Shown piece after piece: positions 5,320 to 61,199 of a stretch of DNA of 64,000 nucleotides; the stretch's first letter is position 1; every line of letters starts with the position of its first letter. A program made the translations under genes and the position numbers. This DNA is from Squalus acanthias. Lineage: Eukaryota. The DNA is taken from positions 154,568,001-154,632,000 of the forward strand of contig CM059431.1 of the NCBI GenBank assembly GCA_030390025.1, written 5' to 3'. The notes under the pieces were generated by a model, which had not been told where the DNA came from, made no database searches, and saw only the letters and a list, made by a program, of their open reading frames with translations.

Positions 5320-5489
5320 AAGATGCAGTTACGAACACCTTAGTAATGTTGGCAAGCTGCACGGATATCCAGCTGCACAGAGTTATCGTTTTCCACCGTC
5401 AGAGACTAGAACAGTCAATTGAAAAAATCGTGGAGGCTGTTAGTCAGTCGCTTTTAGATGCAGAAGTGTTTACTGAAACAGATCATAAG
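5320..5489 (+). CDS. Exon A1: N-terminal half of a CARD-like death-fold module
   Basis: ttcacaccttgacAG|AAGATGCA...GATCATAAG|GTatac; 170 nt, open: (E)DAVTNTLVMLASCTDIQLHRVIVFHRQRLEQSIEKIVEAVSQSLLDAEVFTETDHK. Five paralogous copies share the same boundaries. Family assignment is from recalled similarity to shark NLR N-termini (QL..L..FYR.RLEQAIEE.V..VS). Confidence 0.8.
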
Positions 5490-6667
5490 GTATACTCAAT
5501 ATATGGTGGAATTGCATAATATTAAATGATTCATACAGTTGACATTTTAGATTGACTGTATTCTGTGCAACCCAACCGCAGAAACAGTAATCTAAGATGT
5601 ACTGGCTTAACTTCAACAGGGATGTGAAATTGCATCCGGTGCAAATGTAAACAATTTTTGAAGTGCTCTTCTGAGATACTTCTCTGGTAAATGAACTGTT
5701 CTGTAATTTTGAACGAGTGCGTAAAATAATAAGGGAACAGCATCTCATGCTACATCCATTAGTTCCTTATGGCAACGTCATTGGCCCAACTCCAGTTAGC
5801 TTTTTATCCCAAATTGACAATCAATGACCATCCCTCACAAGTTCAGAAATGGGACTGTTTCCTGATGATTGCACAATGTTCAGCATTATTCGCAAATCTC
5901 ACATACTGAAGCAATCCATGACCACATGAAGCAAAACCTGATCAACATGCAGATTTAAGCGGATAAGTGGCAAGTAACATTCGCGTTGCACACGTGCCAG
6001 GCAATGACCATCTAAAATATAAATGTCTAGTCGCCTCCGCTTAGCATTTAATGACATTACCATGTGCGAACCTGCCACCATACAAATCCTTGGGTTCACA
6101 GTAAAACCGGCACTGACAATTCACTGCCAAACGTCTTGCAGTTACTTTAATACAAATGGACCCATTCCTACAGGGATTGGGTTTACTCCAGATTCTGAAA
6201 GCGGACAAAGATTGCATCCTATCAATTGAGCAATTATTAGAAATTCCAGGATTGTTGCCAACCAGAACGCCTCTAAATTAATAATTTAATAAGGCCCGAC
6301 TAGCAGCGAAATCATCACGTGCCTCAGTTAAACGCCAGTGGAAAACCTGGAGCTATATAAACATTGCAATCGCTAAACATTTCTATTTTCACGAAAAGAA
6401 ATTAACTAGCGCGGTCGGTACCCGCTCCCAGTTTCTGCCATTTTCCTGGCAGTCCCGCCTCCATACCCGCCTCCCCAGGGCTGGGAAAATTCCCCCCAAA
6501 GGTGTGGCTGTTTAATTGAGTGACAAGTTTAAGTAGCTGCAATTGGACTTGCCCAGTATTGGGGTATAGGTTGGCTCGCTGACATGCTGCACGATTGTGT
6601 ACTAGGTCTTGGGTTCTACATTATGTGTCTCCAATCTTCGTTTGTTTGCAAGGAGAAGGCAATGAGT

Positions 6668-7228
6668 AGGAACATAAGAACAGGAGCAGGCCATTCAGCC
6701 CCTCAAGCCTGTTCCACCATTCAGTCAGATCATGGCTGATTTGTACCGTAACTGCATTTACCTGCCTTGGTACCATATCCCTTAATGCCCTGACCTAATA
6801 AAAATCTATCGATCTCAGTTTTGAAATTTTCAATTGACCCAGCCTCAACCGCTTTATGGGGAGAGAATTCCAGATTTTCACTACCCTTTCTGTGAAGAAG
6901 TGCTTTCGGACATCACCCCTGAACGGCCTAGCTCTAATTTTAAGGTTATGCTCCCTTGTTCTGGGCTCCTCCACCAGAGGAAATAGTTTCTCCCTATCTA
7001 CCTAATCAAATCCTTTAATTATCTTAAACACCGCCATTAGATCAGCCCTTAATCTTCTATAATCAAGAGAATACCATCCTAGTCTATGTAACCTATCCTT
7101 ATAATTTAACCCTTTTAGCCCCGGTACCATTCTGGTGAATCTGCACTGCTCCCCCTCCGAGGCCAATACATCCTTCCTGAGGTGTGGTGCCCAGAACTGA
7201 ACGCAGTGCTCTAGATGCGGTCTAACTT
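6668..7228 (-). mobile_element. CR1 LINE 3' fragment
   Basis: ataagaacaggagcaggccattcagccc 3' end and antisense CVQFWAPHLRKD-like segment. Confidence 0.85.
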
Positions 7229-9399
7229 ACTATGTTGCTGTTTTGGAGGGTGCAGCTATGTGGAATATGCAAAATGACGGATGAGAAAAGACTCTTATCA
7301 GGCCAGCCCTTCGAAACAACAGCAACCTTGTACACCATCCATCCATCCCTTAACCATGCTATCTTCTGGGAGAGGCAAAAAAAACTAGACAATTCAAGAA
7401 ATACTCTGGCAAGTTCCTCTCTCAATCGCACAAGACAGTGGTTAGCCATAAGAACAACAACTTCCATTTATATAGCGCCTTTAACATTGTTTCCAGTATA
7501 CAATCCGATTGGTGTGAGCCAATGCCGTTTGCCCGGATTTCTAGGAAATTCTGCAAAACTTATCCAAGTCATTGTTTCCATTACTCTGGCTCTGTCTGTC
7601 TTTGAAACACGTTACCTGTCACAGTTTTTACATTTAACTCAACACGTCCTTCATTGGCCATCTCGCACAATTTGCATTGTCACACGTATCACCCAGCAGT
7701 CGCGAAATTCATCCAGTCTATGGGATATGCAACCGACTGCCTTAATTGCATGCCAGATCATGTCACGCCCCTTATTGGCCCAATTCTCTGTGACATCACC
7801 GATACCGGGCTCTCCTCAGGTATTATAGTCCTGCAATGAAAAGACTGACATAATAAAACATTTGTTAAAAAAATCTCATGACTTATCTGTGGTGTCCATA
7901 TTCTCCCTTTTCCAAATAACTCCTACAGTTATGTAACATATATCTAAACAAAAAACAAATTGGAAATATAGCTGTTTAATTCAAGGCAAATATTGTAGGG
8001 GATATGATACAAATACATTAACAGCTACGTGGCATATATAAGGGCAGGTTTGGGAGCTAAGATGTCTTGTTACCAAGCATTAATTATTTATTGAATTTAA
8101 AACAACATAGGGAGGAGGTATTATTAAAAGATTCACTGCAGCAAGGAACTCAGGACTGGTATGAGCAATTATTCACAATTTTAATCTTTACGTTTGCGGT
8201 TTAGCATAATAAAGGAACTTTTTAACTATATGAGCTTATTATCATGAAACAGATGGGGGAAGGGATAGAATAGATATATAGAAACATTTTAGAAAATGCA
8301 GCAAAAACAGTAACGGATTGGTCAGTGACTTTAAGTGTCCAAAGTATAGAAGCAACGTAATTGGGGAATGGAGTCCTTTGTGTCTGCAGCGTGTCCAGGA
8401 CATTATACAGATGAATACTGTTTTAGGACAACAAGGAAGGAATCAGTATTGGATCTATTTCTAGAAACGGGGAGGGGCTAGTATTTGAGGTAAGGTTAGT
8501 GGAACATCTAAGAAAGAATTGTAAATGTTGTTTTATTATTAATTGTAAAAGGTAACGTTGCAATAAAAGCAATAAGTAGTTTACAGGAATAAATCTAATT
8601 TCAACGAGACTAAACAACTAGAAAAGATATATTGGGAAATGGCCAGAATAAGCCACAGGGAAGCAATCGGTCGCTTCCAATAACTAGAAGATTCCCACAC
8701 AAGATAAATAAATTACACAAGAATAAAAGAGGTGCAACACAAACTAGAATTGCTTGGACGTGCATAGAAAATCAACTAAACATGAGATTGTAAAACAAAT
8801 GCAGGGTTGTAGGGCTGATATATAAAACAAAACAAGGAAACATATAAAATATAAAACAGAAGCGAAAACGTTCAAAATGTGAGAAATGAATGAATGGCAG
8901 GTGACAGAATTAGAAACAATTATTACACTACATAGACATTAAAAGGGAAATCGTTACACAACGGACGGAGCTCTTCAGATATTAAAAAGACATGGTCCAT
9001 AGACAGAATGAAGGAGTGACTGATAAGCTTATGCTACTGTTTCGATAAATGAAAGTGATAATTGAATGAATTAAAGACTCATTGAAGTAAATAGAAAGAA
9101 AATCGAATGGGGCATAAAGCGGGCCGCCGTTTCACTTCATCCCCTTTCGCGCTACTGGCCAACACTACTTTCACCTATATATTTATGGTTTTCAAGTTGT
9201 GCAATTAGATCTTCTGAAAACAGATTGTAAACTTTCATAATATTACTGTTATTTCAAACACTAATGCTTGGTTTGGTCGAATACTATTGCTGCAAATGTA
9301 ACTTTTCCCTTTTATTCAGCACTTTACCCTTTTCCATCTGTCAGCTGAGAAAATACAGTTTCCCTGGATGACTCAACGCTGCTTCTCTCTATTACTGCA

Positions 9400-9729: not shown

Positions 9730-9928
9730 AGAATCAGAACACTAGTTGCAAGTCACAGCAGCAGCGACGCTTCCCGAAACATTTTCGATACCGTGCTGGA
9801 AAAGGGAGCTCGGGCAGAAAGAACAATCTGGAACATATTTGTTCTACTGCAGAATACAAAACCCGAGCTGAGAGAGACACTTTCAGAGATACAGAACAAA
9901 GGTACAACGGGAGAAAGTTATCTGGAAG
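9730..9928 (+). CDS. Exon B1: C-terminal half of a CARD-like module plus linker
   Basis: attttttAG|AGAATC...CTGGAAG|GTAGGT; 199 nt, open: RIRTLVASHSSSDASRNIFDTVLEKGARAERTIWNIFVLLQNTKPELRETLSEIQNKGTTGESYLE. The S..L.D.VLEKG..A...W..F pattern is typical of CARD helices 4-6. Confidence 0.8.
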
Positions 9929-19158: not shown

Positions 19159-19328
19159 AAAATGTAGATACTAAAATCTTACTAATGTTGCCGAGCTGCA
19201 CGGATACCCAGCTGCACAGAGTTATCGTTTGCTACCGTCAGAGACTAGAACAGTCAATTGAAAAATACGTGGATGCTGTTAGTCAGTCGCTTTTAGATGC
19301 AAACGTGTTTGCTGAATCAGATCATAAG
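19159..19328 (+). CDS. Exon A2 of CARD-like module
   Basis: ccttgacAG|AAAATGTA...CATAAG|GTatgc; 170 nt, open: (E)NVDTKILLMLPSCTDTQLHRVIVCYRQRLEQSIEKYVDAVSQSLLDANVFAESDHK. Confidence 0.8.
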
Positions 19329-22488: not shown

Positions 22489-22687
22489 GGAATCATAACA
22501 CGAGTTGAAAGTCACAACAAGAGCGACGCTTCCCGGCACATCTTCGATACTGTGCTGGAAAAGGGAGCTCGGGCAGAAAGAACAATCTGGAAAATATTTC
22601 TTCAACTGCAAAACACAAAACCACAGCTGAAAGCGACAATTTCAGACATACAGAGCAAAGTTACAGAGCGACAAAGTCATTTGGAAG
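22489..22687 (+). CDS. Exon B2 of CARD-like module
   Basis: ttttttAG|GGAATC...TTGGAAG|GTAGGT; 199 nt, open: GIITRVESHNKSDASRHIFDTVLEKGARAERTIWKIFLQLQNTKPQLKATISDIQSKVTERQSHLE. Confidence 0.8.
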
Positions 22688-33999: not shown

Positions 34000-34045
34000 T
34001 AATTTTACAAGCTTTCGAAGCAGTTCGCTCCTTCGTCAGGTAAGT
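34000..34045 (-). ncRNA. Minimal hammerhead ribozyme motif (left Penelope arm)
   Basis: Reverse complement of 37585-37630. Confidence 0.75.
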
Positions 34046-34260
34046 TAGCAATGAGAGAATCTCCCAGAATTCACAATTTAAACCCAGACAAAATCTATTC
34101 ACATTATTCCCTACAACAAAGAGCACAGCCAAGACAATGAGATGTGTCCCAGGGGGTCCAACGTGTCAAACCACCTGCTGGCTGCATATCCTGTCAATTT
34201 GTGTTCTTGTGTTAGTCTTTTAAAAAAAAAACACCTGGGAAGACCGGCCATGATGTCAAG

Positions 34261-36584: not shown

Positions 36585-36620
36585 GTCGGCAGCGTAGTTC
36601 CGTTGCCTCGTCTGTCTGTA

Positions 36621-37674
36621 TCGTAAGAACGGGATATGACGCTCGACTCGTCGATCGACAGTTCCGACGGGCCACAGCGAAAAACCGCATAGACCTCCTC
36701 AGAAGACGAACACGGGACACAACCAATAGAGTACCCTACGTCGTCCAGTACTCCCCCGGAGCAGAAAAACTACGCCATGTTCTTCGCAGCCTTCAACATG
36801 TCATCGATGCCGACGAACACCTTGCTAAGGCCATCCCCACGCCTCCACTACTCGCCTTCAAGCAGCCACCTAACCTCAAAAGTATCATCGTTCGCAGCAG
36901 ATTACCCATCTTTCAGGAGAACGGCAACCAAGACACCACACAACCCTGCCACGGCAACCTCTGCAAGACATGCCAAATCATGGACACAGATACCATCATT
37001 ACACGTGAGGACACTACCCACCAGGTACACGGTACATACTCATGTGACTCGGCCAACGTTGTCTACCTGATACGTTGCAGTAAAGGATGCTCCAGAGCAT
37101 GGTACATCGGCGAGACCATGCAGACACTGAGACAACGTATGAACGGACACCGCGCAACAATCGCCAGGCAGGAGGGTTGCCTCCCAGTCGGGGAACACTT
37201 CAGCAGCCAGGGGCATTCAGCCTCGGATCTGCGGGTAAGCGTTCTCCAAGGCGGCCTTCGAGATACACGACAGCGCAAAATCATAGAGCAGAAACTGATA
37301 GCCAAGTTCCGCACTCATGAGGATGGCCTCAATCGCGATATCGGGTTCATGTCACGATACAGAACGTGACTTGACATCATGGCCGGTCTTCCCAGGTGTT
37401 TTTTTTTAAAAAGACTAACACAAGAACACAAATTGACAGGATATGCAGCCAGCAGGTGGTTTGACACGTTGGACCCCCTGGGACACATCTCATTGTCTTG
37501 GCTGTGCTCTTTGTTGTAGGGAATAATGTGAATAGATTTTGTCTGGGTTTAAATTGTGAATTCTGGGAGATTCTCTCATTGCTAACTTACCTGACGAAGG
37601 AGCGAACTGCTTCGAAAGCTTGTAAAATTAAATAAATCTGTTGGACTATAACCTGGTGTTGTGCGACTTCTCAT
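36621..37674 (+). repeat. Inverted arm: reverse complement of 33956-35009
   Basis: 1054-bp arms with only a handful of differences; ORFs 36980-37369 and 34261-34650 differ at 1 aa. Confidence 0.95.
37585..37630 (+). ncRNA. Minimal hammerhead ribozyme motif (Penelope pLTR)
   Basis: CTGACGA-aggagc-gaact-gcttc-GAAA-gcttGTA: conserved CUGANGA and GAAA core, stem II, palindromic aagctt at stem III. Confidence 0.75.
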
Positions 37675-42300: not shown

Positions 42301-42860
42301 CTTGAGTATTGTGTGCAGTTTTGGTCGCCTTATCTGAGGCAGGATGTTCTTGTCATGGAGAGAGTGCAGCGAAGATTCACGAGACTGATACCTGGGATGG
42401 CAGAAATGACGTATGAAGACAGATTGGGTAGATTAGGCTTGTATCCGATAGATTTTAGAAGAATGAGAGGGGATCTCATTGAAACTTATAAAATTCTAAC
42501 AGGTCTAGACAGACTAGATACAGGAAGGATGTTCCCGATGGCGGGGGAGTCCAGAACCAAGGGACACAATCTAAGGATAAGGGTAAGCCATTTAGTACTG
42601 AGATGAGGAGGAATTTCTTCACCCAGAGAGTGGTGAACCTGTGGAATTCTCTACCACAGAAGATAGTTGAGTCCAATTCGTTAAATATATTCAAGAAGAA
42701 GTTAGATATTTTTCTTAAGGCTAAGGGGATCAAGGGATATGGGGAGAAAGCACGGACAGTGTACTGAATTTGGATGATAAGCCATGATCGCATTGAATGG
42801 CGGAACAGGCTCGAGGGGCCGAATGGCCTACTCCTGCTCCTATCTTCTATGTTTCTATAT
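39397..42860 (+). mobile_element. CR1 LINE (partial ORF1 SGNH, EN, RT) with stops and frameshifts; same family as 807-3288
   Basis: VVHIGTNDIG; GVVYRPP, MGDFN, SDH; SQGSVLG, KFADDTKL; tail tatgtttctatattt. Confidence 0.95.
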
Positions 42861-42986
42861 TTCTCCCTTGTTGGGCTTTGTAGATATTTGTTTAGAAAGG
42901 AGTCATGTACACATGGTAGGAACTCGCTTCCCTTACCCACTTTACCAAACTCTTCTGTCAAATTAACATTGAAATGAAAATTAAAA

Positions 42987-44590: not shown

Positions 44591-45166
44591 TACTAATTGA
44601 TACATGTTTGTATGAGTTTTATACTCGATTCCTTAAACGAACTTTGGCACTGCCCGTTATAAATTTCAGCATGGACAGAAACCACTACTCCTATTCAAAT
44701 TCACCTCAGTTCCACGGTTCCGTGATGCCACATTAACTGACCTACTTTGATTCCTTATCCCATATTGATCATTTGTGAAATGCTCCCCCACTTTATCTCT
44801 GAAGTCGTCTTCAAATCCCCTGTTTTGCAATCATGTCACACCCCTTGCCGTGGTCTCCAGTGTACCAGGACATCTGCTCCGGACTCCAGATATAGAACTC
44901 ATCCCTACCGACTGGTACTCAGTTCCTATGAGCTTCCATCTCTGTCCGTCTTACTTATTTTAAGCATCGACCACATGTTGCATAGCCTGGTTCGTTCTCT
45001 TAACTCCAGCAAAACAGTCTGCGTTAATTCTGAATTCCACTTCTCTAAAGCACAACTCGCCAGTGTCACCGAAAAACAACTGCCATCGCGATAGCAGTTA
45101 GTTCAGAGTATTCTCTGTTTCATAGCGGGCATTTATGTTAATCTATTCTCATTTACACCTTCAAAG

Positions 45167-45336
45167 AAAATGCAGTTACTGAACTATCACTAACGTTGGC
45201 GAGCTACACGGATTTCCAGCTGCGCAGAGTTATCGTTTGCTACCGTCAGAGACTGGAACAGTCAATTGAAGAATTCGTGGAGGCCGTCAGTCAGTCGCTT
45301 GTAGATGCAAACCTGCTCACTGAAACAAATCATAAG
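45167..45336 (+). CDS. Exon A3 of CARD-like module
   Basis: ccttcaaAG|AAAATGCA...CATAAG|GTatgt; 170 nt, open: (E)NAVTELSLTLASYTDFQLRRVIVCYRQRLEQSIEEFVEAVSQSLVDANLLTETNHK. Not in the ORF track. Confidence 0.8.
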
Positions 45337-45892
45337 GTATGTTTCATATATGTTCGAATCGTATTGTGTTAAATGAGTCAAACGATTGACTGTTTAGACA
45401 GACTGTTCTGTGCAACCCAACAATATTAGCGGTACTTTACGCTGCACTTTATTAACTGAAATTTTTGTCCAGTGCCAGTTTAATCAACATTTGAAGTACT
45501 CTTCTGAGATATCTCTCTGTTAAATTAATTTTTCAGGTATTTTCAATGAATGTATTCATAATAAGAGAAGTTTCTCATGGACTAACAGTGATTTTTTAAT
45601 GGCAGCTTTCTTGGCCCAATTATCGCCAGCTTCAATAATCTTCCTTCAAAAGCTCCGAGTTGGGGCTGTTTGCTGATGATTGCACGGTGTTTAGCTCCAT
45701 TCGCAAATCCTCAAAAATGAAGCAGTCCATGCCCACACGCGGCATGACCAAGACAACATCCATGTTTAGGCCGATAAGGGGCAGGTAACATTTATGCCGC
45801 CTAGTACCAGTTACTGGCTACCTACAGATAGAGAAAGTCTTACCAATTGCCGTTGACATTCAATGGCTTTACCATTGGAGTTCTACCACCAT

Positions 45893-48556
45893 ATAAAAAG
45901 AAAAAAAGGTTGCTAAGGCAAAAGTAGGTCCCTTAGAGGATGAGACCGGGAAATTAATGGTGGGAAACATGGAGATGGCAAAAATGCTGAAAAAATATTT
46001 TGTTTCAGTCTTTACGGTAGATGACACAAAGAATATCCCAACACTGTACAAACAGGGGGCTCTAAGTGGGGAGGAGCTTAATACGATTTAAATCACTAAG
46101 GAATTGGTGCCCAGTAAAATAATGGGACTCAAGGCGGCTAAATCCCCTGGACCTGATGGCTTACATCCTACGGTCTTGAGGGATTGCGGATGCTTTGGTA
46201 ATAATTTTCCAAAATTCACTGGAATCAGCAAAGATCCCGGCAGATTGGAAAACTGCTAATGTAACACCCTTATTTAAAAAGGGTAGTAGGCAGAAGGCTG
46301 GATATTATAGACCAGATAGCCTAACATGTGTGGTGGGTAAAAAATTGGAGTCTATTATTAAGGAGACAGTAACAGAACATTTAGATAAACATAATTTAAT
46401 AGGACAAAGTCAGCATGGCTTTATGAAGGGGAAGTCATGTCTGACAAATCTGCATTAATTGTTTGAGAACATAACGTACAGGGTGGATAAAGGGAAACCA
46501 GCGGACGTAATGTATTTAGACTTCCAGAAGGCATTCGACAAGGTGCCACGTAAAAGATTATTGCTCAAGATAAAAATCACTGGGGCCCAGAAATTGATCC
46601 CGCGACGCGAGAGTACGCACTGCGTACTCTCGCGTTTTTCCCACTCCAATTGCCGGTTTTCTGCATGCCCTGCGCATGCGCTGAAAACCGGCAATTGCTC
46701 TTTTGAAAAGGGGCCGCTTCCTCGGTGCATCGCGTGCGCGCTACAGGCTGCGCGCACGCTGTGCACTTCATGCTTTGGACGCGCAGGTAAGTACTGAAGA
46801 TTTTAGAAATGTAAAAAGGAGGAGTAAGACCCACTTTTAAGAAGGTAAGTAGTGAATTAAGTATTTTTTGGAATTTTTTTTAACAGGTATATCTTTTTTA
46901 GAGACTTTAAAGACAGGTAAGTTTGTTTTATAACTATTTAAAAGATTTTAAATTTTTTCAAAAATTCAATTTTTTATTTAAAATGGTTAATTTAATTAAC
47001 TATACTTATTTTATTAATGTGATGGTTTTTTTTTATTTAATTGAGGTTTAGCTGTTATTTTGGGGGGGTGTAAGATTCATAGATTTCACAGCACGTCATT
47101 GAAACTTATGAATGGAAGATGGTGTGCTGCCATTGGCTCTAAATGAGTGACGTGATCCCACAGCTCGCACGAATTCTCTCCGCCGCTGGGATACGCAAGC
47201 ACTGCCCAGCTGATGTCTGGAACATCAAGTTCGTGCGAGCTGGATCTGAAAAAGCACAAGCGAGGTGAGAGACCGCGGGGAAGCCTTATCCCCGCGGGAA
47301 CAGAGCGAGATCAATTTCTGGGCCTGGATTGCGGGTAATATTCTGGCATGGGTGGAGGATTCGTTATCTATCAGGAAGCAGAGAGTTGGGATAAATGTTT
47401 AAATCTCGGACTGGCAACCAGTAGCCAGTGGTGTTCCGCAGGGGTCGGTGCTGGGTCCCCAACTCTTTACAATCTATATTAACGATTTGCTGAGGGGACC
47501 GTGTGTAACATATCAAAGTTTGCAGATGATACAAAGATGGGAGGGAAAGTAGAAAGAGAGGAAGACATAAAAAACCTGCAAGGGGATATGGACAGGCTGG
47601 GTGAGTGGGCGGAGATTTGGCAGATGCAATACAATATTGCAAAATGTGAGGTTATGCACTTTGGCAGGAAAAATCAGAGAGCAAGTTATTATCTTAATGG
47701 CGAGAAACTGGAAAGTACTGCAGTACAAAGGGATATGGGGGTCCACGTGCAAGAAAATCAAAAAGTTAGTATGCAGGTGCAGCAGGTGATCAGGAAGGCC
47801 AACGGAATGTTGGCTTTTATTGCTAGGGGGATAGATTATTAAAACAGGGAGGTATTGCTGCAGTTATATAAGGTATTGGTGAGACCGCACCAGGGATACT
47901 GCATACAGTTTTGGTGTCCATACTTAAGAAAATACATACTTGCTCTCGAGGCAGTACAAAGAAGGTTCACTCGGTTAATCCTGGGGATGAGGGGGTGGAC
48001 ATATAAGGAGAGGTTGAGTAGATTGGGACTCTAGTCATTGGAGTTCAGAAGAATGAGTGGCGATCTTATTGAAACATATAAGATTGTGAAGGGGCTTGAT
48101 CGGGTGGATGCGGTAAGGATGTTCCCAAGAATGGGTGAAACTAGAACTAGGGGTCATAATCTTAGAATAAGGGGCTGCTCCTTCAAAACTGAGATGAGGA
48201 GAATCTTCTTCACCCAGAGGGTAGTAGGTCCGTGGAATTTGCTTCCCCAGGAAGCGGTGGAAGAGACATCATTAAAGAAATTTGAAACAGAAATAGATAG
48301 TTTCCTAGAGGTAAAGGGAATTAGGGGTTACGGTGAGCGGGCAGGACATTGGACATGAGGCTGAGTTCGGATCGGTCAGGGCCCTCTGGGTGGCGGTGCG
48401 GGCCCAGGGGATGAGTGTCCGGGTCCTGCTCCTACTTCTTGTGTTCTGTAGATTGATGTTAGGATCAGATCAGCCATGATCTTATTGAATAGCGGAGCAG
48501 GCTCGATGGGTGAATTGGCCTACTCCTGCTCCTATTACTTATGTTCTTATGTTCTT
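45893..48556 (+). mobile_element. CR1 LINE, 5'-truncated, interrupted by a MITE
   Basis: [34 protein letters not shown]; (ttatgttc)n tail; empty site ctaccaccatgagtgt at ~57114 and ~61761. Confidence 0.93.
46584..47324. mobile_element. MITE copy 3 (reverse orientation to copies 1 and 2) with 16-bp perfect TIRs and TGG TSD
   Basis: tgg|ggcccagaaattgatc ... gatcaatttctgggcc|tgg; the host CR1 sequence resumes after it. Confidence 0.92.
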
Positions 48557-51175
48557 ATGAGTGTCCCGGGATTTCCAGTATAACCAGGTCTGAGAATTCA
48601 CTGCCATACTTATTGCAGTTAACGTAATTCCAGTAGCCAAGCCCCTCGAAATAAGTAATTGAATAAGACACAATGTGCAGCCTAAGCATCACGCATCCTC
48701 ATTACAGCCCCAATGGACAACCTGGAGATAGATCAAAACTGTAATAACCACATACTTCAAATCGCATGTGAATAAGTTAACTGACACATACGAACTTAAC
48801 AGTATGAATTTCCCTACGATCACGGCCGAGATTTTCCGCCCATTCTCCAAAAAAACGGCCGAGATTTCCAATTGGATTGAACCATTGCCGGTGGTGCGGA
48901 TTTAAACAATTTCTGCTGAACATATCCAATTCGTTTCTTCTATTCTACTTCTTGCTAAGTCCCGCCCCTACTTTTGTCCAATGCTCAGGGACGTCCACAA
49001 ACCCGTCCTCTCCCGAGGCCACATCCTCTCACCTCATGAATGCCATAATATCCCATTTCTTAAAAAAAACCTACACTAATCTATAATTTAGTCTGCTCCC
49101 TTTCTCCAATACCTCCTCACTTATGTAACACAAATGTAATGAAACATAGTACTGTGAATAAAGCTTGTGAGTTCAATGAACAGTTTGTCTGAGGGTATGA
49201 TATAATGATTTGATCAACGTGGCTTATATAAGGGCAGGATTGGGAAATGAATTGTGCACTGTTACCAGAAGATCATGGTAACTTAAGTTGTATGCAAATA
49301 GGGAGCAGTCATTAATAACAGATTCATTTGCCGCATTGGAACTTCGGGACTGATATAAGGAATGATTCAAAATATAAATCTGTAAGTTTGGGGTAACACT
49401 ATAATAATGGAACAATTTGTCTATAAGGCGTTCGTTATCTTACACCAAATAGTGGAAAAGGGATAGAAGAAGAGTTATATAGACAAATTGGTGAAAATGC
49501 AGCAATAACAGTACCGGTGATTGGTGACTTTAAATATCCCAAGTACAGAAGTAACATAAGTGGGGAAGGGAGGACAGGGGTTTAAAGCTTTGCCAGGACT
49601 TTATTCAGATATGTACCATTTTAGGAAAACAAGAAAGGATTGAGCATTTGATCCGTTTCTAAATATTGACAGCGGCTACTCAGTGAGGTATGTCAAGTGA
49701 AACATTCACCAATTATATCGTTAGTATTCATATGAATTAGAAAATGTTTCGTTAAAATCAAAAAAAATATATATATTTAAAGCAATATATCTAATTTCAA
49801 CGCGGCTATCATATTAGCTCAGTTACATTGAGGCAGATATGATCAGATAATATCGTGGTGAGGCAATAGAAAAATAGCCAATAGAAGTTTACCATACAAG
49901 ATACACAAATCACACGTGAATGAAAAGGAGTGCAGCACAAACTAGAATTACTTGGGCGCGCATAGAAAATGAAATAAAGAACATGTTTTACAATTGAATG
50001 TAGGAGTGTAGGGCTAGTTATATAAAACAAATGAAGTACGCCTTGGTAATATAGTGAATATATAAAAGATGAATGAGTGCCCGTTGACAGAGTTCAGACA
50101 ATGATCACATTCTGTATAAACTTCAAAGAAAATAGTTACACCAATAACAGAGCTGCTTAGAGTTGAAAGGGGAATGGTTCATATAGATGACGAAGGATTC
50201 ACTGAAAAACTATTAGTACTGTTTCGATGAATGAAAGTGATATTTGGAATGAGTGAAAAACTCATTGAAGTCAATTGAAAAGAAAGTCAGACGCGAGTAA
50301 AACGGGCCGCCGATTCGCTTCAGATTGTTTGACCCAGGTGGCCCACACTTGCCAACACCTTGTGACCCATTATTTATGGTTGTCAACTTGTGCAATCTGT
50401 GTTTCTAAAAACCAAGCTGTGAGCTTTCAAAACGATTATTGTCCTTAACAACGAATAATTATTGATTTTGATGGTATCCTATACCTGTAACCTTAAGTGT
50501 GTGCTTTGATTTGGCACTGGCTCTTGTCAATCAATCAGTTGCTGGTTATAATGAGAGAAAGTCCAGCCGCCGTCGGTGTCTCAAAGCTGCTCCTTTCTAT
50601 CTCAGTAACCTCTTCCAATCCTACAACCTGTCGAGATCCCAGTGCTGTTCCAGTTCTGGCCAATTGTGCATCCCCCATTTTCATCGCTCCACCATTGATG
50701 GGCTTGCCTTCAGCGGTTTAGACCCTAAACATCTATAATTCCCTCCCGGAACTACTATGAATCTCTATCTCTCTCTTCTCCAAGACTCTCTTTAAATCTA
50801 CTCTATGACCAAGCTTTGGTCACCTGTCTTAATATCTTCCTCTGATGCTTGGTGTTACATTTTGTTTGATAACACTGCCTTTGCAACGCTTTGGGACGTT
50901 TTACTACGCTGGTTCTTGTTGTTTCTACATAATTCTCATTTCAGGCACGCCTCCTGTCTGACTAATGGCGTATCTTCCTTGTATTCGCTTATGGCATATG
51001 GGCGTCGCAAGCAAGGACAGCATTTATTGCTCTTCCCTTAATTGTTTTCTGCATTAACTCCCGATTCTGAACGTTTCAACTCTCTGCTAAGGAAAGCTAG
51101 AAATAGAAAAGACGTTTCATATTTGAGTTTGTACATTTCTTCTTAATATATGATTGCAATATACATTCTTGTTAG

Positions 51176-51374
51176 GAAATCAGATCCCTAGCTGAATGTC
51201 ACCGCAGAAGCGATGCATCCCAAATCTTTTTCGATACCGTGCTGGAAAAGGGAGCTCTGGGAGAAAGAAAAATGTGGAACATATTGCTTCAACTGCAGAA
51301 CACCAAACCCAAGCTGAAAAATACATTGTCAGTGATAGAGAATAGAAGTACAGAGGGAGAAAGTGATCTAGAAG
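51176..51374 (+). CDS. Exon B3 of CARD-like module
   Basis: ttcttgttAG|GAAATC...CTAGAAG|GTTAGT; 199 nt, open: EIRSLAECHRRSDASQIFFDTVLEKGALGERKMWNILLQLQNTKPKLKNTLSVIENRSTEGESDLE. Confidence 0.8.
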
Positions 51375-52440
51375 GTTAGTGGCATCCAAATCTAATTTTC
51401 CGTTAGAATAACAAAGTTTTATTTAAGATGAGCACTATTTTTTACTCGTTTAGGTGAAGTGGGCGTCGCTGCCAAGGCCAGCATTTATTACCCATCCCTA
51501 GTTGCCCTTGAGAAGGTGGTTGCTAGCCGCTTTCCTGAAAAGTGGTGAAGGTTCTCGCACAATGCTGTTGCGGAGGCAGTGCCATGAGTTTGACAAAGCG
51601 ACAATGAAGGAACGGCGATATTCTTCCAAGAGAGGATGGTGTGTGACTTGGAAGGGAACTTGAAAGTGGTGGTGCTCCCAGGCGCCTGATAATCTTGACC
51701 TTCCAGTTGCTACAGGTCGCGTGTTTCGGAGGTACTGGCGAAGATGCCTTGACGAGTTGCCGCAATGCATTTTGTACATGGTGCACTCTGCAGCCACTTT
51801 TTGGCAGTGGGGAAGGGACTGGATGCTACTAAATTATACAGGTTGTGTGAGTTTTATACTCGATTCTTTGATCGACCTTTGGCACTGCCCGTTATAAATT
51901 TCAGCTTGGACAGAGCTCCACTACTCCGATGCAAATTCACCTTTTGTTCCACGGATCCGTGATGCCCTCATTACCTGACCTACTTTGATTCCTTAAATCA
52001 CATTGATCATTTGTGAAAGGCTCCTACTCATCCTCAAATCTCTCGCCTACCTTATCTCTAAAGTCGTCTTCACATCCCCACATTTGCACTCCAGTCCCTC
52101 CTCTCCCCTTGCTGTGCTCTCCAGTGTACCATTTCATCAGCTAAGACCTCCAGATATGGAACTCATCCACACCGACTGGAACTCTGCTCCTATGAGCTTC
52201 CATCTCTGTACTTCTTACTTATTTAAACAACCGACCACACTAAGCCAGGCCTGGGTTGCTTCTCTTAACTCCAGCAGAAAAGTCAGCGTTAATTCTGAAT
52301 ACCAGCTCTGTAAGGAAGCACTGGCAGTATTCACTGAATGAAAGACTCTCTAAAGAACTTCTGTCGCGATAGCCGTTAGTTCAGAGTATTCACTGATCCA
52401 TTGCATTTATGTTAATCTGTTCTCATTTACACCTTCACAG

Positions 52441-52610
52441 AAAATGCAGATACTGAAATATTCCCAACTTTGGCGAGCTACACGGATTTCCAGCTGCGCA
52501 GAGTTATCATTTGCTACCGTCAGAGACTAGAGCAGTCAATTGAAGAGGTAGTCGAGGCCGTAAGTCTGTCGCTTGTAGATGCAAACGTGCTTACTGAAAC
52601 AAATCATAAG
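52441..52610 (+). CDS. Exon A4 of CARD-like module
   Basis: accttcacAG|AAAATGCA...CATAAG|GTatgt; 170 nt, open: (E)NADTEIFPTLASYTDFQLRRVIICYRQRLEQSIEEVVEAVSLSLVDANVLTETNHK. Confidence 0.8.
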
Positions 52611-52670
52611 GTATGTTTCATCTATGTTTGAATCGTATAGTGTTAAATGACTCAAACGATTGACTGTTTA

Positions 52671-55600
52671 TAGTCATAAAGTCATAGAGTCACAGAGTTG
52701 TACAGCACAGAATGAGGCCCTTCGGCCCATCGTGTCCGGCGACGGCCATCAAGCCCTGTCTATTCTATTCCCATTTTCCAGCACTTGGTCCATAGCCTTG
52801 TATGCTATGGCGTTTCAAGTGCTCATCTAAATGCTTCTTGAATGTTGTCTGGGTTCCTTCCTCTACCACACTTTCAAGCAGTGAGTTCCAGATTCCAACC
52901 ACCCTCTGGGCGAAAAAGTTTTTCCTCAAATTCCCTCTAAACCTCCTGCCCCTTATCTTGAAACTATGCCTCCTTGTTATTGACCACTCTACTAAGGGGA
53001 AAAGTGCATTTCTATCTACCTAATCTATGCCCCACAAAATTTTGTACACCTTTATCAGGTCCTCCCTCAGCCTGCTTTGCTCTAAGGAAAACAACCACAG
53101 CCTGTCCAGTCTCTCTTCATTGCTGTAGCGCTGCTATCCAGGTAACATCCTGGTGAATCTCCTCTGCACCCTCTCCAATGCAATCACATCCTTCCAATCG
53201 TGTGATGACCAGAACTGCACACTTTACTCCAGCTGTGGCCTAACTGGCGTTTTGTTCAGTTCCATCATAACCTCCCTTCTCTTATATTCTGTGACTGGAT
53301 TAATGAAGGCTAGTATCCCATATGCCTTGTTAACAACCTTATCTACCTATCCTGCGACATTCAGGGATCTATGTACATGCACATGAAGTTCCCTCTCATC
53401 CTCTGTCCTTCCTAAGTTCCTACCATTCATTTTGTATTCCCTTGACTTTTTAGGCCCCACAAAATGCATCACCTCAAACTTTTCAGGGTTAAACTTCATT
53501 TGCCACTGTTCTGCACATCTGACCAACACGTCTATATCGTCCTGTAGCCTGAGGCTTCCCTCCTCGCTATTTACCATCCCACCAATTTTCGTGTCATCTG
53601 CGAACTTACTGATCATACCTCCTACATTCATATGTAAATCATTAATGTACACTACAAACAGCAAAGGACCCAGCACCGATCCCTGCGGTACACCACTGGA
53701 CACACGCTTCCAGTCCCAAAAACAACCTTCGACCATCACCCTCTGCATCCTGCACTAATCCAATATTGGATCCAATGTGCCAAGTTGCCCTATATCTAAT
53801 GGGCTCTTACCTTCTTGATCAGTCTCCCATGCGGGTCTGTGTCAAAAGCCTTACTGAAGTCCATGTAGCCACATCAACTGAACTACCCTCATCCACAACC
53901 CGTAGAAAAATTCAATCAAATTGGTCAGACATGATCTCCCCCTGACAAAGCCATGCTGACTATCCTTGATTAATCCTTGCCTCTCCAAGTCGAGACCAAT
54001 TCTGTTCCTCAGAATGTTTTCCAATAATTTCCCGACCACTGATTTTAGGCTCACTGGCCTATAAATCCCTGGTTTATCCCTACTACCCTTCTTGAATAAT
54101 GGTACTACGTTAGCTGTTCTCCATTCCTCTGGCACCTCCCCTGTGGCCAGAGACGTTCTGAAAATTTGTGTCACAGACCCTGCAATCTCCTCCGTTGCCT
54201 CACACAGCAGCCTGGGATACATCTCGTCTGGCCCTGGGGTTTTATCCAATTTTAAGCCCGCTAATACCGCTAGTACCTCCTCCCTCTTAATACTAATTGT
54301 TCAAGTATATCACTATCCCCCTGTCTGATTTCTATGCCTACATCGTCCTTCTCCATAGTGAACACAGATGCAAAATAGTCATTTAAAACCCCGCTAACCT
54401 CTTCTGGCTCGGCAAACCGATTGCCACTTTGGTCCCTAATGGGCCCTACTCTTTCCCTGGTTATCCTCTTGCCCTTAATATACATATAAAACATCTTGGG
54501 ATTTTCCTTTATTTTGCCCGCCAGTGTTATTTCATGCCCCCTCTTCGCTCTCCTAACTTATTTTTTAAGTACCACCCTGCACTTTCCATACTCTTCTTGG
54601 GCTTCCACTGTTTTTAGTCCATTGTATCTGCCAAAAGCCTTCCTTTTCCCCTACTCCATTCTCGTATATCCCATGATATCCAGGGTTCCCTTTGCTTGTT
54701 GGACCCACCCTTGACCTTTATGGGAACATGCTGCCGTTGTACTCTCTCTATTTCCTTTCTGAAAGACTACCCCTGCTCTGTTGTGGATTTTCCTACAAGT
54801 AGCTGATCCCAGTCTAATTTGGCAAGATCCTGCCTTCTCATTTTAAAATCGACCTTGCCCCAACTTAGAACGTTTATTTCCGGTCCATCTTTATCCTTTT
54901 CCATGACTACCTAAATCTCAGCGAATTATGGTCACTGTCAACAAAATACTCTCCTACTAATACTTCTACCACTTGTCCGGCTACATTCCCTAGAATTATG
55001 TCCAGTACCGACCCCTCTCTTGTAGGACTTTCTACATGCTGGCTCTAAAAGCTCTCCTGGATGTACTTTAATAATTTCGCACCCTCTAAGCCTTTCACAC
55101 TCTGACTAGCCCAGTAAATATTGGGGAAGTTGAAATCCCCTACAATTATTACCCTATTATTTCTGCACTTCACTGAGATTTCCCTACATATCTGTTCCTC
55201 TGTCGCCCCCTGACTGTTTGGGGGCATATGGTACAGTAACAGCAAAGTGCTTGCCCCCTTTTTGTTTTTAAGTTATCCACATATGGCCTCATTAGAGGAA
55301 CCTGCTAAGATATCATTCCTCCTTACAGCGGTAATTGATTAATATTGCGACATCCCCTCCTCTTTTAAACCCACCTCTGTTTCGTCTGAAGATTCTATAC
55401 CCCGGAATATTGAGCTGCCAGTCCTGCCCCTCCCTCAACCATGTCTCTGTGATAGCAACAATATCTTACTCCCATGTGCTCATCAACACCTTCAATTCAT
55501 CTATCTTACCCGCAAGACGCCTTGCATTAAAATAAATGCCATCCAGCCTTGCCATACTCCCTTTTGCCGTTACTTATTTGCTCTGCCTGTTAGGCTGCCT

Positions 55601-56604
55601 TGTTTTTTCCTCTATAGTTGGCTGTGCATCACCCCCTACTATCCTCCCACTCCTTATCCCATCCCCCTGCCAAGTAAGTTTAACCCTCCCCAAAGAGTAT
55701 CGGAAATCTCCCCGCAAGAATGATGGTCCCGTTCCGGTTCAGGTGCAACACGTCCGACTTGTACAGGTCCCATCTTCCCCAGAAGCAGACCAAGTGATCC
55801 AGGAAACTACAGCCCTCCCTCGTGCAACAACTCTTTAGCCACGCATTCATCTACTCTATCCTTCTATTCCTATATTCACTGGCATGTGACACCGGGAGTA
55901 ATCCAGAGATTACTACCTTCGAGGTCCTGCTTTTTAATCTGCTACCTACCTCCCTAAATTCTTTCTGCAGTACCTCATCCCTCTTTTTACCCATGTCGTT
56001 GGTACCAATTTGAACCAGTACCTCTGACTGTTCGCCCTGCCCCTTCAGAATGCCCTTCAGCCGTTCAGTGACATCCTTGACCCTGGCACCAGGGAGGCAA
56101 CATACCATCCTGGAGTCACGTCTGCAGCTACAGAAAGGTCTATCTGTTCCCATTACGATAGAATGCCCCTATCACTATTGCTCTCCCACTCGTTTCCTCC
56201 CACCTGCACAGCTAAGCCACTCGTAGTGCCACGGACGTGGCTCTTGCTGCATTCCCCTGAGAAACGAATATCCCCCATCTGTATCCAAAACTTGAAAATC
56301 TGCGGAGTGTGAGATGGGCCCAGGGGACTTCTGCACGACCTTCCTAGTTCCTTTACTCTGTCTGATGGTCACCGATTCCCTGTCTGTCTGTGCACTCTAT
56401 ACCTGCGGTGTGACCAGCTTGGTAAACGTGCTATCCACGAAGATCTCAGCTTCGCGGATTCTCCACAGCGACTCCAGCCGCAGCTCCAGTTCAGAAACGC
56501 GGATTTCGAGAAGCTGCAGCTGGAGACATTTCATGCACATGTGATCGCCCTACACACCTAAAGTGTCTCTGACTTCTAACTTCGCACAGGAGGAGCACTC
56601 CACG
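52671..56604 (-). mobile_element. Near-full-length CR1 LINE (ORF1 zinc finger/coiled coil/SGNH, EN, RT), degenerate
   Basis: 7-bp TSD ctgttta at 52664-52670 and 56605-56611; ORFs 55851-56153 (VCCLPGA..IGTND..VISGLLP), 55045-55245 (VGDFNFP), 53851-54249, 53347-53748 (KFADDTKI); (ctatgact)-type tail. Confidence 0.95.
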
Positions 56605-59600
56605 CTGTTTAGACAGAGAGTATTCTGTGCAAACCAACGATTTAAGCAGTACATTAGGCTGTACTGGTTTAACTTCAGTAGACAATCTGAAATTAATGTC
56701 CTGTGCCAGTGATTTGAAATACGCATCTGAGATATCTCTGTTTAATTAATTTTTCATGAATTGTCAATGCATGCATTCATAATAAGAGAACAGTACCTCA
56801 TGGACGAAACGTGATTTTTTAATAGCAGCCTTCTGTGCCCAAGTATCGTCAGCTGCTTCATCAATGACCTTCCTTCAAAAGGTCAGATTTGTGGCTATTC
56901 GCTAATGCTTGCACAATGTTTAGTTCCGTTCGCAATTCCTCAGAATATGAAGCAGTCCATGCCCGCACACAGCATGATCCTGACAGCATACAAGTTAGGG
57001 GCGAGAAGTGACAGGTAACATTTATGCCACGTAAGTTTCAGGTGCTGGCTACTTGCAACTAGAGAAAGTCTAATCCATTACATTTGATATTCAATGGCTT
57101 TACCATTGGCGTTCTACCACCATGAGTGTTCCGAGGATCAACACTAAAATCAGCTTAGAGAATTTACTGCCAAACCTCTTGCAGTTAACGTTATAACAGT
57201 AGCCAAGCCCCTCGAAACGAGTAATTGAATAAGACAACACATGCAGCGCAAGCAAAACACATCATCATTACAGTCCAATGGACAACCAGGTGCTATGTCA
57301 AAACTGTTATAATCACATCATTCAAATCTCATGTGAATAAGTTAACTGACACATACGAACTGAACAGTATGACAATTCCTACGATCACAGCCGAGATGCT
57401 CGACCCATTCTCCATCAAACCGGCCGTGCGTTTCGAATTGGATTGAGCCATTGCCGGTGGTGCGGACTGAACAATTTCTGCTGAACATATCCAATTGGTT
57501 TCTTCCATTCTACGTCTTGCTAAGCCCCACCCCTACCTCGGCCCAAAACTCAGGGACGTCAACAGACATGGCCGCTGCCGAGGCCACATCCTCTCACCTC
57601 AGGAATTCCATAATGTCGCATTTCATAAAGTAACCCTAGTCTAATCTATGATGTTTATCTGCTCCCTTTCTCCAATAACTCCTCACTTATGTAACACAAA
57701 TATAAAAAGACATAGTACTGTGAATAAAGCTGGGAAGTTCAAGGTACAGGTTGCCTGAGGTTATGATATAATGATGTGATTGACGTGGCTTTTATAAGTG
57801 CAGGATTGGGAGTTGAATTGTGCTCTGTTACCTGAAGATCATGGTAACTTAAGTTGTATGAAAATAGGGAGCATTAATTAACAACAGATACAGTTGCAGA
57901 ATTGGATCTTCAGGAATGATATAAGGAATGATTCAAAATAGAAATCTATAAGTCTGGGGTAACACCATCATAACATAACTCTTTTTCTACAAGGCGTTCG
58001 TTTAATTACACAAAATAATGGAAATGTGATGGAAGAAGAGTTATATTGACAAATTGGAGATAATGCAGCAATAACAGTAACAGTGATTGGTGACTGTAAA
58101 TATCCAAAGTACCGAAGTAACCTAAGTGGGTAAGGGAGGCCGTGGTGTCTGAGTTTTGTCCAGGACATTATTCAGCTGGCTACAATTTTGGACGACAAGA
58201 AAGGATTGAGCATTTCATCTATTTCTAGAAATGGGCAGGGCTAGTCGGTGAGGTAAAGGTAGTGAAACATCTACCAATGTTATCGTTCATATGTTCATAA
58301 GTTAGTATTCAAATGAATTATAAAATGTTTCATAACAATCAAAGCAAGAAATATGTTAAAGGAATAAATCTAATTTCAACGAGGCTGACATATTAGCTGA
58401 GTTATATTGAGGCGCATATGATCAGATAATATCTTGGGTAGGCAATAGGATGATAGCCAAATAAAGTTTTCCCTTACAAGATACACAAATCACACGGGTA
58501 TGAAGGCAGTGCTGGGCAGACAAGAATTACTTGGGCTTGCAGAGAAAATGAAATAAACAATAGATAAAAATTGAATGTCGGAGTGTGGGGCTAGTTATAT
58601 AAAACAACTGAAGGAAGACTGGGTAATATAGTGAACATTCAATAGATGAATGAGTGGCCGGTGACAGAGTTCGAGACAATGATCATATTCCATAGAAACT
58701 TCAAGGAAAAAAGTAACACTAGAAAAGAGCTGTGTAGAGATGAAATGGGAATGGTTCATTTCGAGGACCGTGGAATCACTGAAAGGCTTTTGTTACTGTT
58801 TCGATGAATTAACGTGATACTTGGAATGAATGAAAAACTCATTGAAGTCAATGGAAAAGAAAGTCAGACGAGAGTAAAACTAGGCTGCCAATTCGCTTCT
58901 GCGCGTTTGGTCCAATTGGCCAACATTGTCCAACACATTGTGACCCCTCCTTTATTGCTGTCAACTTGTGCAATCTGAGTATATAAACAAATAACTGTGA
59001 GCTTTCAAAAATATTAAATTCCTTATCTACCAATAATTATTGGTTTTGATCGTATCCTATAGCTGTAACCGTAGCTTTGTGCTTTGATTTTGCACTTTAC
59101 TCTTTTCCATCAATCAGTTCTTGGTTATAATGAGAGAAAGTCCAATTCCCTGGGTGTGTCAAAGCTGCTCCTCTCTATCGCTGTAACCTCTTCCAATCTT
59201 AAAACCGTTCGAAATTCAGGCTCTGGCCCAATTCTTACCTCTTGTGCATCCCCCATTTTCATCGCTCCAACATTGATGGCGTTGTCTTAAGCGGTTTTGA
59301 CACTAAGATCTGAAATTCCCACCAGAAACCACTATGAATCTCAATCTCTCTCCTCTCTAAGACTCTCTTTAAATCTACTCTGTGACCACGCTTTGGTCAG
59401 CTGTACTAATATCTTCCTCTGATGCTTGGTGTTACATTTTTTTTGCTTACAGTCCCTTTGCAACGCTTTGGGACGTTTTACTACGCTAGTTCTTGTCGTT
59501 TCTACTTAATTCTCATTGCAGCCACGCCTATTGTCTGACTAATGCCGTATCTTCCTTTTATTCGCTTATGGGATCTGGGCGTCGCTGGCAAGGACAGCAT

Positions 59601-59752
59601 TTATTGCTCATCCCTTAATTGTTTACTGCATTAACTCCCGATTCTGAGCGTTTCATCTCTCTCCTAAGGGAAGCTAGAAATAGAAAAGTCGTTTCTTATC
59701 CGAGTTTGTACATTACTTCTCTATATATGTTTGCAATATACATTCTTGTTAG

Positions 59753-59951
59753 GAAATCGGATGCCTAGCTGAATGTCACCGCAGAAACGATGCATCCCAA
59801 ATAATTTTCGATAAAATGCTGGAAAAGGGAGCTCGGGGAGAAAGAAAAATGTGGAATATATTGCTTCAACTGCAGAACACCAAACCCAAGCTGAAAAAAA
59901 CATTGTCAGAGATACAGAATAGATGTACAGAGGGAGAAAGTGATCTCGAAG
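59753..59951 (+). CDS. Exon B4 of CARD-like module
   Basis: ttcttgttAG|GAAATC...CTCGAAG|GTTAGT; 199 nt, open: EIGCLAECHRRNDASQIIFDKMLEKGARGERKMWNILLQLQNTKPKLKKTLSEIQNRCTEGESDLE. Confidence 0.8.
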
Positions 59952-61029
59952 GTTAGTGGTATCCAAATCTAAATTTCCGTTAGAATAACAAAGTTTTATT
60001 TAAGATGAGCACTATTTTGTACTCGTTTATGTGATGTGGACGTCGCTTCCAAGGCTAGCATTTATTACCCATCCCTAGGTGCCCTTGAGAAGATGGTGGT
60101 TCGCCGCTTTTCTGAAACGCTGCAGTCCATGCGGTGAAGGTTCTCCCACAATGCTGTTGGGGAGGCAGTTCCATCAGTTTGACAAAGCGACAATGAAGGA
60201 ACGGCGATATACTTCCAAGAGAGGATGGTGTGTGTCTTGGATGGGAACTTGGAAGTGGTGGTGTTCCCAGGCGCCTGATACTATTGACCTTCTAGTTGGT
60301 AGAGGTTGCGGGTTTCGGAGGTACTGGCGAAGAAGCCTTGAGGAGTTGCTGCAGTGCATCTTATAGATAGTCCACTCTGCAGCAAATGTGTGGCAGTGGG
60401 AAAGGGACTGGATGCTACTAATTTATACAGGCTTGTGTGAGTTTTATACTCGATTCCTTGAACGACCTTTGGCACTGCCCGTTATAAATTTCAGCTTGGA
60501 CAGAGCTCAACTACGCCTATGCAAATTCACCTTTTGTTCCACGGATCCGTGATGCCCTCATTAACTGACCTACTTTGATTCCTTAAACTACATTGATCAT
60601 TTGTGAAAGGCGCCGACTCATCCTCAAATCTCTCGCCTACCTTATCTCTAAAGTCGTCTTCACATCCAATATTTTGCACTCAATTCCCTCCTCTCCCCTT
60701 TCTGTGCTCTCCAGAGTACCAGTTCATCTGCTCCGAACTCCAGACATAGAACTCATCCACATCGACTGGAACTCAGCTCCTGAGAGGTTCCATCTTTGCA
60801 CTTCTTACTTATTTAAACAACGAGCACATGTAGCAAGACCTTGGTCGTTTCTCATAAATCCAGCAGAACAGTCAGCGTTAATTCTGAATACCACCTCTGC
60901 AAGGCACCACTAGCAGTGTTCACTGCTTGAAAGACTATCGAAAGAACTTCTGTCGCGATAGCCGTTAGTTTAGATAATTCACTGTTTCATAGCATTTATG
61001 GAATTCTGTTCTCATTTACACCTTCACAG

Positions 61030-61199
61030 AAAATGCAGTTACTGAAATATTATCAACGTTGGCGAACTACACGGATTTCCAGCTGAACAGATTTATCCTT
61101 TTCTACCGTGAGAGACTAGAACAGTCAATTGAAGAGGTAGTGGAGGCCGTTAGTCAGTCGCTTGCAGATGCAAACGTACTTACTGAAACAAATCATAAG
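61030..61199 (+). CDS. Exon A5 of CARD-like module (partner exon B5 expected just beyond the window end)
   Basis: ccttcacAG|AAAATGCA...CATAAG|GTatgt; 170 nt, open: (E)NAVTEILSTLANYTDFQLNRFILFYRERLEQSIEEVVEAVSQSLADANVLTETNHK. Confidence 0.8.

Follow-up and report, generated by a model that had tools for sequence, protein, structure and literature searches.

CARD signalling proceeds by nucleated polymerisation, and the receptors known to use it carry one or two CARDs per chain and depend on oligomerisation to reach threshold. NLRC4, NOD2 and RIG-I, for example, nucleate CARD filaments or bind partners with one or two of these domains. The 64,000-nt stretch of Squalus acanthias DNA analysed here (hereafter the window; contig CM059431.1, 154568001-154632000, + strand, from a 3.7-Gb assembly) holds nine small exons. 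At a probability of roughly 0.6, they make up the first 4.5 modules of a series of 17 CARD modules, each of two exons, that occupies the N-terminal coding part of a single NLR gene. The 17 modules encoded at this locus are far more than in any described receptor.

Several described systems share part of this organisation. NOD2, RIG-I and MDA5 have serial N-terminal CARDs on a nucleotide-dependent sensor, but two of them against up to 17 encoded here, and the NACHT exon of this locus is of the NLRP3-like/NLRC4_HD2 type rather than that of a NOD2 orthologue. At the level of the gene, a parallel is found in kringle IV-2 of LPA, an intragenic repeat of about 5.5 kb with two exons per kringle, all copies of which are spliced into the mRNA; the copies are near-identical, the array arose by unequal crossing-over, and arrays of this type vary in copy number between individuals. 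LPA likewise repeats a two-exon, in-frame, symmetric domain module inside one gene, although its fold and function are different and its copies near-identical, whereas those of S. acanthias are 2-22% apart and are predicted, rather than seen, to be included together. The chondrichthyan 'NLRP3-like' NLRs have the same module family, the same order of module(s) followed by NACHT, and in some cases tandem modules (three in P0002, five in P0049), but they are automatic gene models, for which our search brought up no published description, with at most five modules against the 17 in frame here.

The nearest published gene architecture, judging from passages of Howe et al. (2016, PMC4852459), is that of the zebrafish NLR-B30.2 genes, whose N-terminal peptide-repeat exons are extensively duplicated. 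In the same passages, these genes have many tandem small exons ahead of a large NACHT exon and belong to a large, lineage-specific NLR cluster, but each small exon encodes a short peptide motif rather than a folded domain, and the death fold is single. Our literature search found no description of shark or other cartilaginous-fish NLRs with tandem CARDs. The passages at hand of the whale-shark genome paper (PMC8455134) give 43 NLRs and leave such arrays unmentioned, and in the titles and abstracts retrieved, 'tandem CARDs' means the two CARDs of NOD2, RIG-I, MDA5 or DRH-1.

Organisation of the exon array

A preliminary description of the window had proposed nine alternating exons encoding a chain of CARD-like modules. 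Their alternation, sizes, phases, AG/GT boundaries and open frame were all reproduced by blastn and a frame check. Probed with exons A4 and B3 (Table 1), the window gave exactly nine ungapped matches of 76-100% identity, all on the + strand and in the order A-B-A-B-A-B-A-B-A. Every A exon is 170 nt and passes from phase 1 to 0, every B exon is 199 nt and passes from phase 0 to 1, and all nine are preceded by AG and followed by GT. The coding frame is free of stops and indels in each of them, and most other frames have one to six stops; B1 is the exception, its third frame being open too. The G at the end of a B exon and the AA at the start of an A exon give GAA (Glu) at the junction, and the nine exons form one frame of 548 residues. 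The absence of a conserved Met, the symmetric phases and linking introns of about 1 kb (1066 nt for B3-A4 and 1078 nt for B4-A5) agree with in-frame tandem modules rather than separate genes, as had been proposed.

Comparison of the window with itself shows that duplication takes in whole units, introns too. Identity is about 85% within the pair M1/M2 and 79-87% within the group M3-M5; across the two sets it is 66-70% for introns and 76-85% for exons. Exon A1 has 68% amino-acid identity to A3, and module 1 is of the older M1/M2 type.

The downstream analysis covered a further 200 kb, for which positions above 64000 continue the window count (64001 = contig 154632001). Across the window and this flank, tblastn with fixed-length extraction recovered 17 exons of each type, A and B alternating without exception on one strand, all 34 of them open and exactly 170 or 199 nt long. 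The array had been expected to pass the right end of the window, and 12 more modules lie there. Splice sites are canonical at 67 of 68 positions (GT 34/34, AG 33/34); the sole departure is the acceptor of A13, 44.1 kb beyond the window's right end, which reads TG in place of AG. In the splice-site flanks the majority base has a frequency of 0.92-0.98, compared with 0.58-0.89 deeper in the introns. The A-to-B introns measure 2.3-7.9 kb, and 12 of the 16 B-to-A introns are near 1.06 kb (1.05-1.08), with others listed at 0.56, 0.86, 5.7, 9.2 and 22.5 kb. Modules differ by 2-22% in nucleotides, and protein identity among M3-M17 is 83-93%. A block of three modules is present twice, as M12-13-14 and M15-16-17, and tandem duplication within the gene, one to three modules at a time, probably built up the array.

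An overrun on the left had been thought probable as well. Here a six-frame scan with a hidden Markov model (HMM) found no further module in window positions 1-5319, but a divergent B-type exon ('B0') is present 11.15 kb left of the window, at contig position 154556848. Because of this exon, and because B0 paralogues precede M1-type modules at two other loci, the gene probably starts left of the window with a divergent module 0. The same type of scan found no further modules between the last exon found and the B0-type exon of the next gene.

The NACHT exon and the 3' part of the gene

The preliminary description had also stated that the chain is without a NACHT domain. This fails because a phase-compatible NACHT exon came to light once the downstream flank was read; it lies downstream of module 17 in the same orientation, and the earlier call is an artefact of the window edge. 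The other half of the statement, that no NACHT or LRR exon stands between the modules, is correct. The exon, of about 1.7 kb, is located 1.96 kb past B17 and 80.6 kb beyond the window's right end, in an open stretch of 614 codons that starts 1.9 kb downstream of B17. Only two phase-1 AG acceptors precede the conserved NACHT part, 144649 and 144655, and either gives Glu at the junction. Pfam scores are 113.4 bits for NACHT (cut-off 26.7), 29.8 for NOD2_WH (cut-off 23.1) and 30.6 for NLRC4_HD2, the last slightly below its cut-off of 33.1, and the translation carries a GIGKS motif of the Walker A type. The NACHT and winged-helix regions expected of an NLR, with an HD2 match slightly short of threshold, are placed in one gene with the array by DNA order and by homologous gene models. 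Two small exons further 3' (Table 1) are 59-67% identical to the C-terminus of the Mustelus model P0002; Pfam found no LRR in these two, and exons further 3' were not sought.

On sequence evidence, then, the window exons appear to be the front part of one NLR gene, with about 143 kb between A1 and the most distal exon identified. Its order would be predicted 5' exons, a probable divergent module 0, M1-M17, the NACHT/winged-helix/HD2 exon and short C-terminal exons, and its product would be an NLR with an effector arm of up to 17 CARDs, or about 2,090 residues.

The NACHT exon also bears on the suggestion that the locus encodes only CARDs, with translation ending in or just after the array to give a decoy or a pre-assembled seed. 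Such a product is improbable. The modules do lack any NACHT or LRR exon between them, a strong-looking acceptor at 144567 would close the frame nine codons past B17, and some short database models comprise 2-3.5 modules but lack NACHT (P0001, P0003, P0004 and P0005). The in-phase NACHT exon is, however, present here and at two paralogous loci, and P0001 proves to be part of P0049, a model that does include NACHT. The AG at 144567 offers a route to a possible CARD-only isoform, but nothing supports the decoy idea as such, and a product of this kind would be a minor isoform at most.

Structure of the module

The A+B unit is supported as a CARD-type death fold through its homology to a modelled relative, P0018, a 160-residue single-module protein from a ray. 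An HMM of the 17 modules matches P0018 at E 2e-24 over HMM positions 4-114. The AlphaFold2 (AF2) model of P0018 (pLDDT 87.7, pTM 0.75) has six helices in a bundle, the first of them kinked, plus an extra helix at the N-terminus, and the A/B exon boundary falls within helix 3. When this model was compared with 48,161 PDB representatives by VIA, CARDs took 33 of the top 35 rows, as assigned by title or by reading of the aligned range. The Z values of CARDs lie between 8 and 12 overall (NLRC4 11.9, ARC 11.3, ASC 11.1, NOD1 10.6; RIG-I and MDA5 9.6-9.8), and the first other death fold, the death domain of FADD, appears at rank 36 with Z 7.4. Values below about 13 are frequent for helical bundles, and weight is placed on the uniformity of the list and on full-domain coverage. 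Foldseek also ranks CARDs on top for this model (TMt 0.7-0.8, rmsd 1-3 Å), but with E>0.2.

The CARD-like call of the preliminary description is borne out by these matches to solved CARDs. The checks it had proposed, run on relatives, divide: structure gives a CARD, and the Pfam CARD model mostly stays below threshold, with scores of 30.3 bits for P0005, 23.4 for P0004 and 22.9 for P0003 at a cut-off of 23.9. UniRef labels P0001 a 'CARD domain-containing protein'. Sequence searches of the PDB with P0001 and with an alignment profile returned nothing significant, the best CARD row being caspase-1 at E 0.47. ESM Atlas, taken for leads only, gave a feature score of 0.79 and structure rows for the BIRC3 CARD, AIRE HSR and MDA5 at TM 0.6-0.67, and a complex prediction with four copies of P0018 residues 5-122 scored 0.01, which amounts to no verdict. 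Other Pfam names raised by six single exons (CoV_NSP15_M, Herpes_IE68, Annexin) were below threshold and are put down to chance.

Relatives in cartilaginous fishes

When the four B exons of the window were made into a profile and searched against 1.84 billion representative proteins, 44 matches resulted; the ten that were looked up are all chondrichthyan. Most matches are 'NLRP3-like' NLRs with a single module ahead of NACHT, and by these profile matches the likeness to the chondrichthyan NLR N-terminus, suggested in the preliminary description, was right. A word-indexed homologue search with exon B among longer proteins produced no match. Tandem modules in the relatives were counted with an HMM of the 17 full modules. 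P0049, a 1405-aa model from S. torazame, has five modules before NACHT, and P0002 (XP_078087540.1, Mustelus asterias, RefSeq) has three tandem modules that lead straight into NACHT at the homologous point. P0001 (GCB66031.1) has 3.5 modules and is a fragment of the P0049 gene, and about two modules each are present in P0003, P0004, P0005, P0045, P0023, P0009 and P0026. Against models of the P0002/P0049/P0001 type, the module HMM reaches E 1e-101 to 1e-163 and the NACHT exon 48-51% identity, the closest annotated protein being at 51%. Hydrophobic, transmembrane-like segments occur beside the CARD modules in some of these models (P0002 at about 100-125, P0049 at about 565-590, and the C-terminus of P0003); they may be real membrane anchors or mis-joined exons.

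Paralogous arrays in the genome

Exon B has 148 matches in the S. acanthias genome, most of them within one 6-Mb part of contig CM059431.1, and stops are found in three of the 148. Two paralogous loci repeat the order of array followed by NACHT, with at least 13 and at least eight B exons. At the first, a NACHT exon at 153798539, 99% identical to that described above, follows a 13-B array with spacing like that of B5-B17; at the second, a NACHT exon at 155517708, 94% identical, follows an 8-B array. The first paralogue occupies a block of at least 80 kb at 153719773-153800254, about 913 kb upstream, and its ten positional pairs with this gene are 98.7-99.5% identical. Divergence between the two is 17/3350 in exons and 252/28593 in introns, with 0 indels against 20. 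The block at 153.72-153.80 Mb reflects a segmental duplication of very recent date or else a duplicate created in the assembly. The cluster also contains classic single-module genes. Further runs of five to nine B-type exons occur on both strands of the contig with spacings of about 7-13 kb (Table 1) and have no adjacent NACHT among the matches listed; they may be more poly-CARD genes.

Selection on the exons

A FastTree/Fitch reconstruction over the 17 modules contains 324 parsimony substitutions, 87 synonymous and 237 non-synonymous. Among so many, 16.4 changes to a stop codon would be expected, whereas the modules show none (P 4.7e-8), which argues that the reading frame is under selection; in a cruder star-tree simulation, 0 of 5000 runs passed without a stop. 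The 34 exons (6,273 nt) also contain no indels, compared with 0-1.8 events per 100 nt in the flanking introns, which are 83-91% identical; the preliminary description had pointed to this difference, and it holds. In the CARD core the ratio of non-synonymous to synonymous change (omega) is 0.80, compared with 1.1-1.5 for the N-helix and linker, and a Poisson model predicts 17.5 invariant codons out of 122 where 34 are observed. A strict frame with drifting or diversifying residues would be the signature of exons co-translated upstream of an essential NACHT domain, as the combination of weak residue constraint and strict frame constraint is expected from one long co-translated open reading frame.

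It could instead be argued that only the module or modules nearest to NACHT are used, and that the rest are unspliced pseudo-exons left intact through recent duplication. An overall omega near 0.9 would suit such dead duplicates, as would the exon identity of about 85-89% between M1 and M2 against 88.5-91% in their flanking introns; the 99% identical array copy 913 kb away shows that duplication is active. The modules are nevertheless 2-22% apart; over the 324 substitutions, 16.4 stops and several indels should have accumulated, and none did; 67 of the 68 splice sites are kept, and core codons are invariant beyond chance. We regard this explanation as very improbable.

Joining of the modules

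With modules encoded in one frame ahead of NACHT, ordinary exon-definition splicing should join most or all of them serially, because the modules are symmetric (phase 1-1) and all splice sites but one are canonical. Serial inclusion is favoured by the conserved splice sites, by selection that acts on the frame only, and by the tandem modules in RefSeq models of other species.

Alternatively, the array may act as a menu from which each mRNA takes one or a few modules by cassette or mutually exclusive splicing, giving varied CARD heads with different partner specificities. Any subset of modules splices in frame, since B donors fit both the next A exon and the NACHT exon; variable surface positions and an omega of about 0.9 are in keeping with diversification; the broken A13 acceptor means that at least one module must be skipped; and annotated relatives have one to five modules, not 17. 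On the other side, exons whose sites are good are included by default exon definition, a stop would be cheap if it fell in only one of 17 alternatives and yet none of the 34 exons has one, and M3-M17, at 83-93% protein identity, offer little diversity for choice. Selector or docking elements are not known here, no search having been made for them. Selective use of this sort is unlikely, although it deserves to be taken seriously.

Several observations weigh against a gene whose modules are all CARDs and are all joined ahead of NACHT. Annotated relatives have five tandem modules at most. Overall omega for the 17 modules is about 0.91, which means that most residues of any module are barely constrained, and pairwise values among the window modules range from 0.48 to 1.31. 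In the 99% identical array, the counterpart of B12 carries a TAA. Module 13 at least is probably skipped, because its A13 acceptor is TG and not AG, and the pyrimidine-rich AG at 144567, 82 nt upstream of the in-frame NACHT acceptor, would, if joined to a B exon, end the frame nine codons on. No B-to-A joints were seen in three same-species sequencing runs, in which the sampled words were absent, a blank result either way; the run contigs over 44900-61400 cover repeats only, and depth is 0 in the bins of A3, A4 and A5. In the fold modelling, the homologue P0018 stood in for the window peptide. Pfam CARD (PF00619) matches none of six single exons and one of 31 family members at E<=0.01, and the AF2 model of the 3.5-module P0001 was poor (pLDDT 60.9, pTM 0.30) and was set aside.

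Two further observations concern the same items. Dropping A13 alone breaks the frame, and dropping A13 together with B13 keeps it. Foldseek on the P0001 model gave generic helical matches only, which were left unused.

Other features of the locus

Table 1. Exons of the array and related features. Positions are window coordinates, continued past 64000, except in the last row, where they are contig positions.
Feature	Position	Strand	Remarks
Exon A1	5320..5489	+	170 nt, phase 1 to 0; AG/GT, open; first half of CARD module 1
Exon B1	9730..9928	+	199 nt, phase 0 to 1; second half of module 1
Exon A2	19159..19328	+	170 nt, AG/GT, open frame
Exon B2	22489..22687	+	199 nt, AG/GT, open frame
Exon A3	45167..45336	+	starts first module of the younger M3-M17 type
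Exon B3	51176..51374	+	199 nt, AG/GT, open frame; blastn probe
Exon A4	52441..52610	+	170 nt, AG/GT, open frame; blastn probe
Exon B4	59753..59951	+	199 nt, AG/GT, open frame
Exon A5	61030..61199	+	170 nt; gene goes on past window end
Exon B5	64382	+	array exon past window
Exon A17	136010	+	array exon past window
Exon B17	142490	+	last B exon of array
NACHT exon	~144649-146368	+	phase-1 acceptor; donor at 146368
Small exon	147893-147982	+	3' of NACHT exon
Small exon	148259-148450	+	3' of NACHT exon
Further B-exon runs	155.25-155.30, 158.03-158.09, 158.32-158.37, 158.84-158.90, 159.19-159.23 Mb	both	

The introns carry fragments of long interspersed nuclear element (LINE) reverse transcriptase and endonuclease along with other repeats. 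LINE fragments at 821-3288, upstream of A1, and at 40393-42864, in the B2-A3 intron, are inverted relative to each other and 85% identical, and LINE open reading frames at 918-3448 (-) and 39657-40424 (+) have RVT_1 and endonuclease matches. Inside the 22.5-kb B2-A3 intron, inverted arms of 1,054 bp that are 99% identical (33956-35009 and 36621-37674) enclose a 521-aa open reading frame at 35019-36584 (-) with a reverse-transcriptase domain; the element at 33956-37674 is a young retroelement with inverted terminal repeats. A 39-bp tandem repeat is present at 30869-31514 (16.6 copies, 78% matches), and related blocks at 10.6-11.2, 25.0-25.8 and 32.5-33.8 kb are dispersed in the M1 and M2 introns. 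On the far side of the gene, NACHT fragments 35-50% identical to shark NLRs occur on both strands 112 kb past the right end of the window; they are what is left of a broken NLR, located between this gene and the next one that bears modules.

Implications

In an NLR with so long an effector arm, NACHT-driven oligomerisation would gather the CARD chains, and the resulting high local CARD density could seed filaments of CARDs from an adaptor, kinase or caspase acting downstream, or bind several partners at once. The fullest version of this picture, a single NLR polypeptide with 17-18 serial CARDs (about 2,100 residues), possible copy-number variation of the kind seen in variable-number tandem repeats, and at least three such genes with perhaps about ten arrays, is tentative and somewhat doubtful. 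If true, it would far exceed in length the death-fold chain of any described protein, with enough CARDs for several turns of a CARD filament in one molecule, and the activated receptor would be its own filament seed. A many-CARD single-chain receptor would also test how valency sets the nucleation threshold. Genes of this kind are probably cut short when shark NLR clusters are annotated automatically, as the models examined stop at two to five modules. For the oldest jawed vertebrates, the array would point to a new way for NLRs to diversify, by expansion of a domain array inside the gene and not by gene duplication alone.

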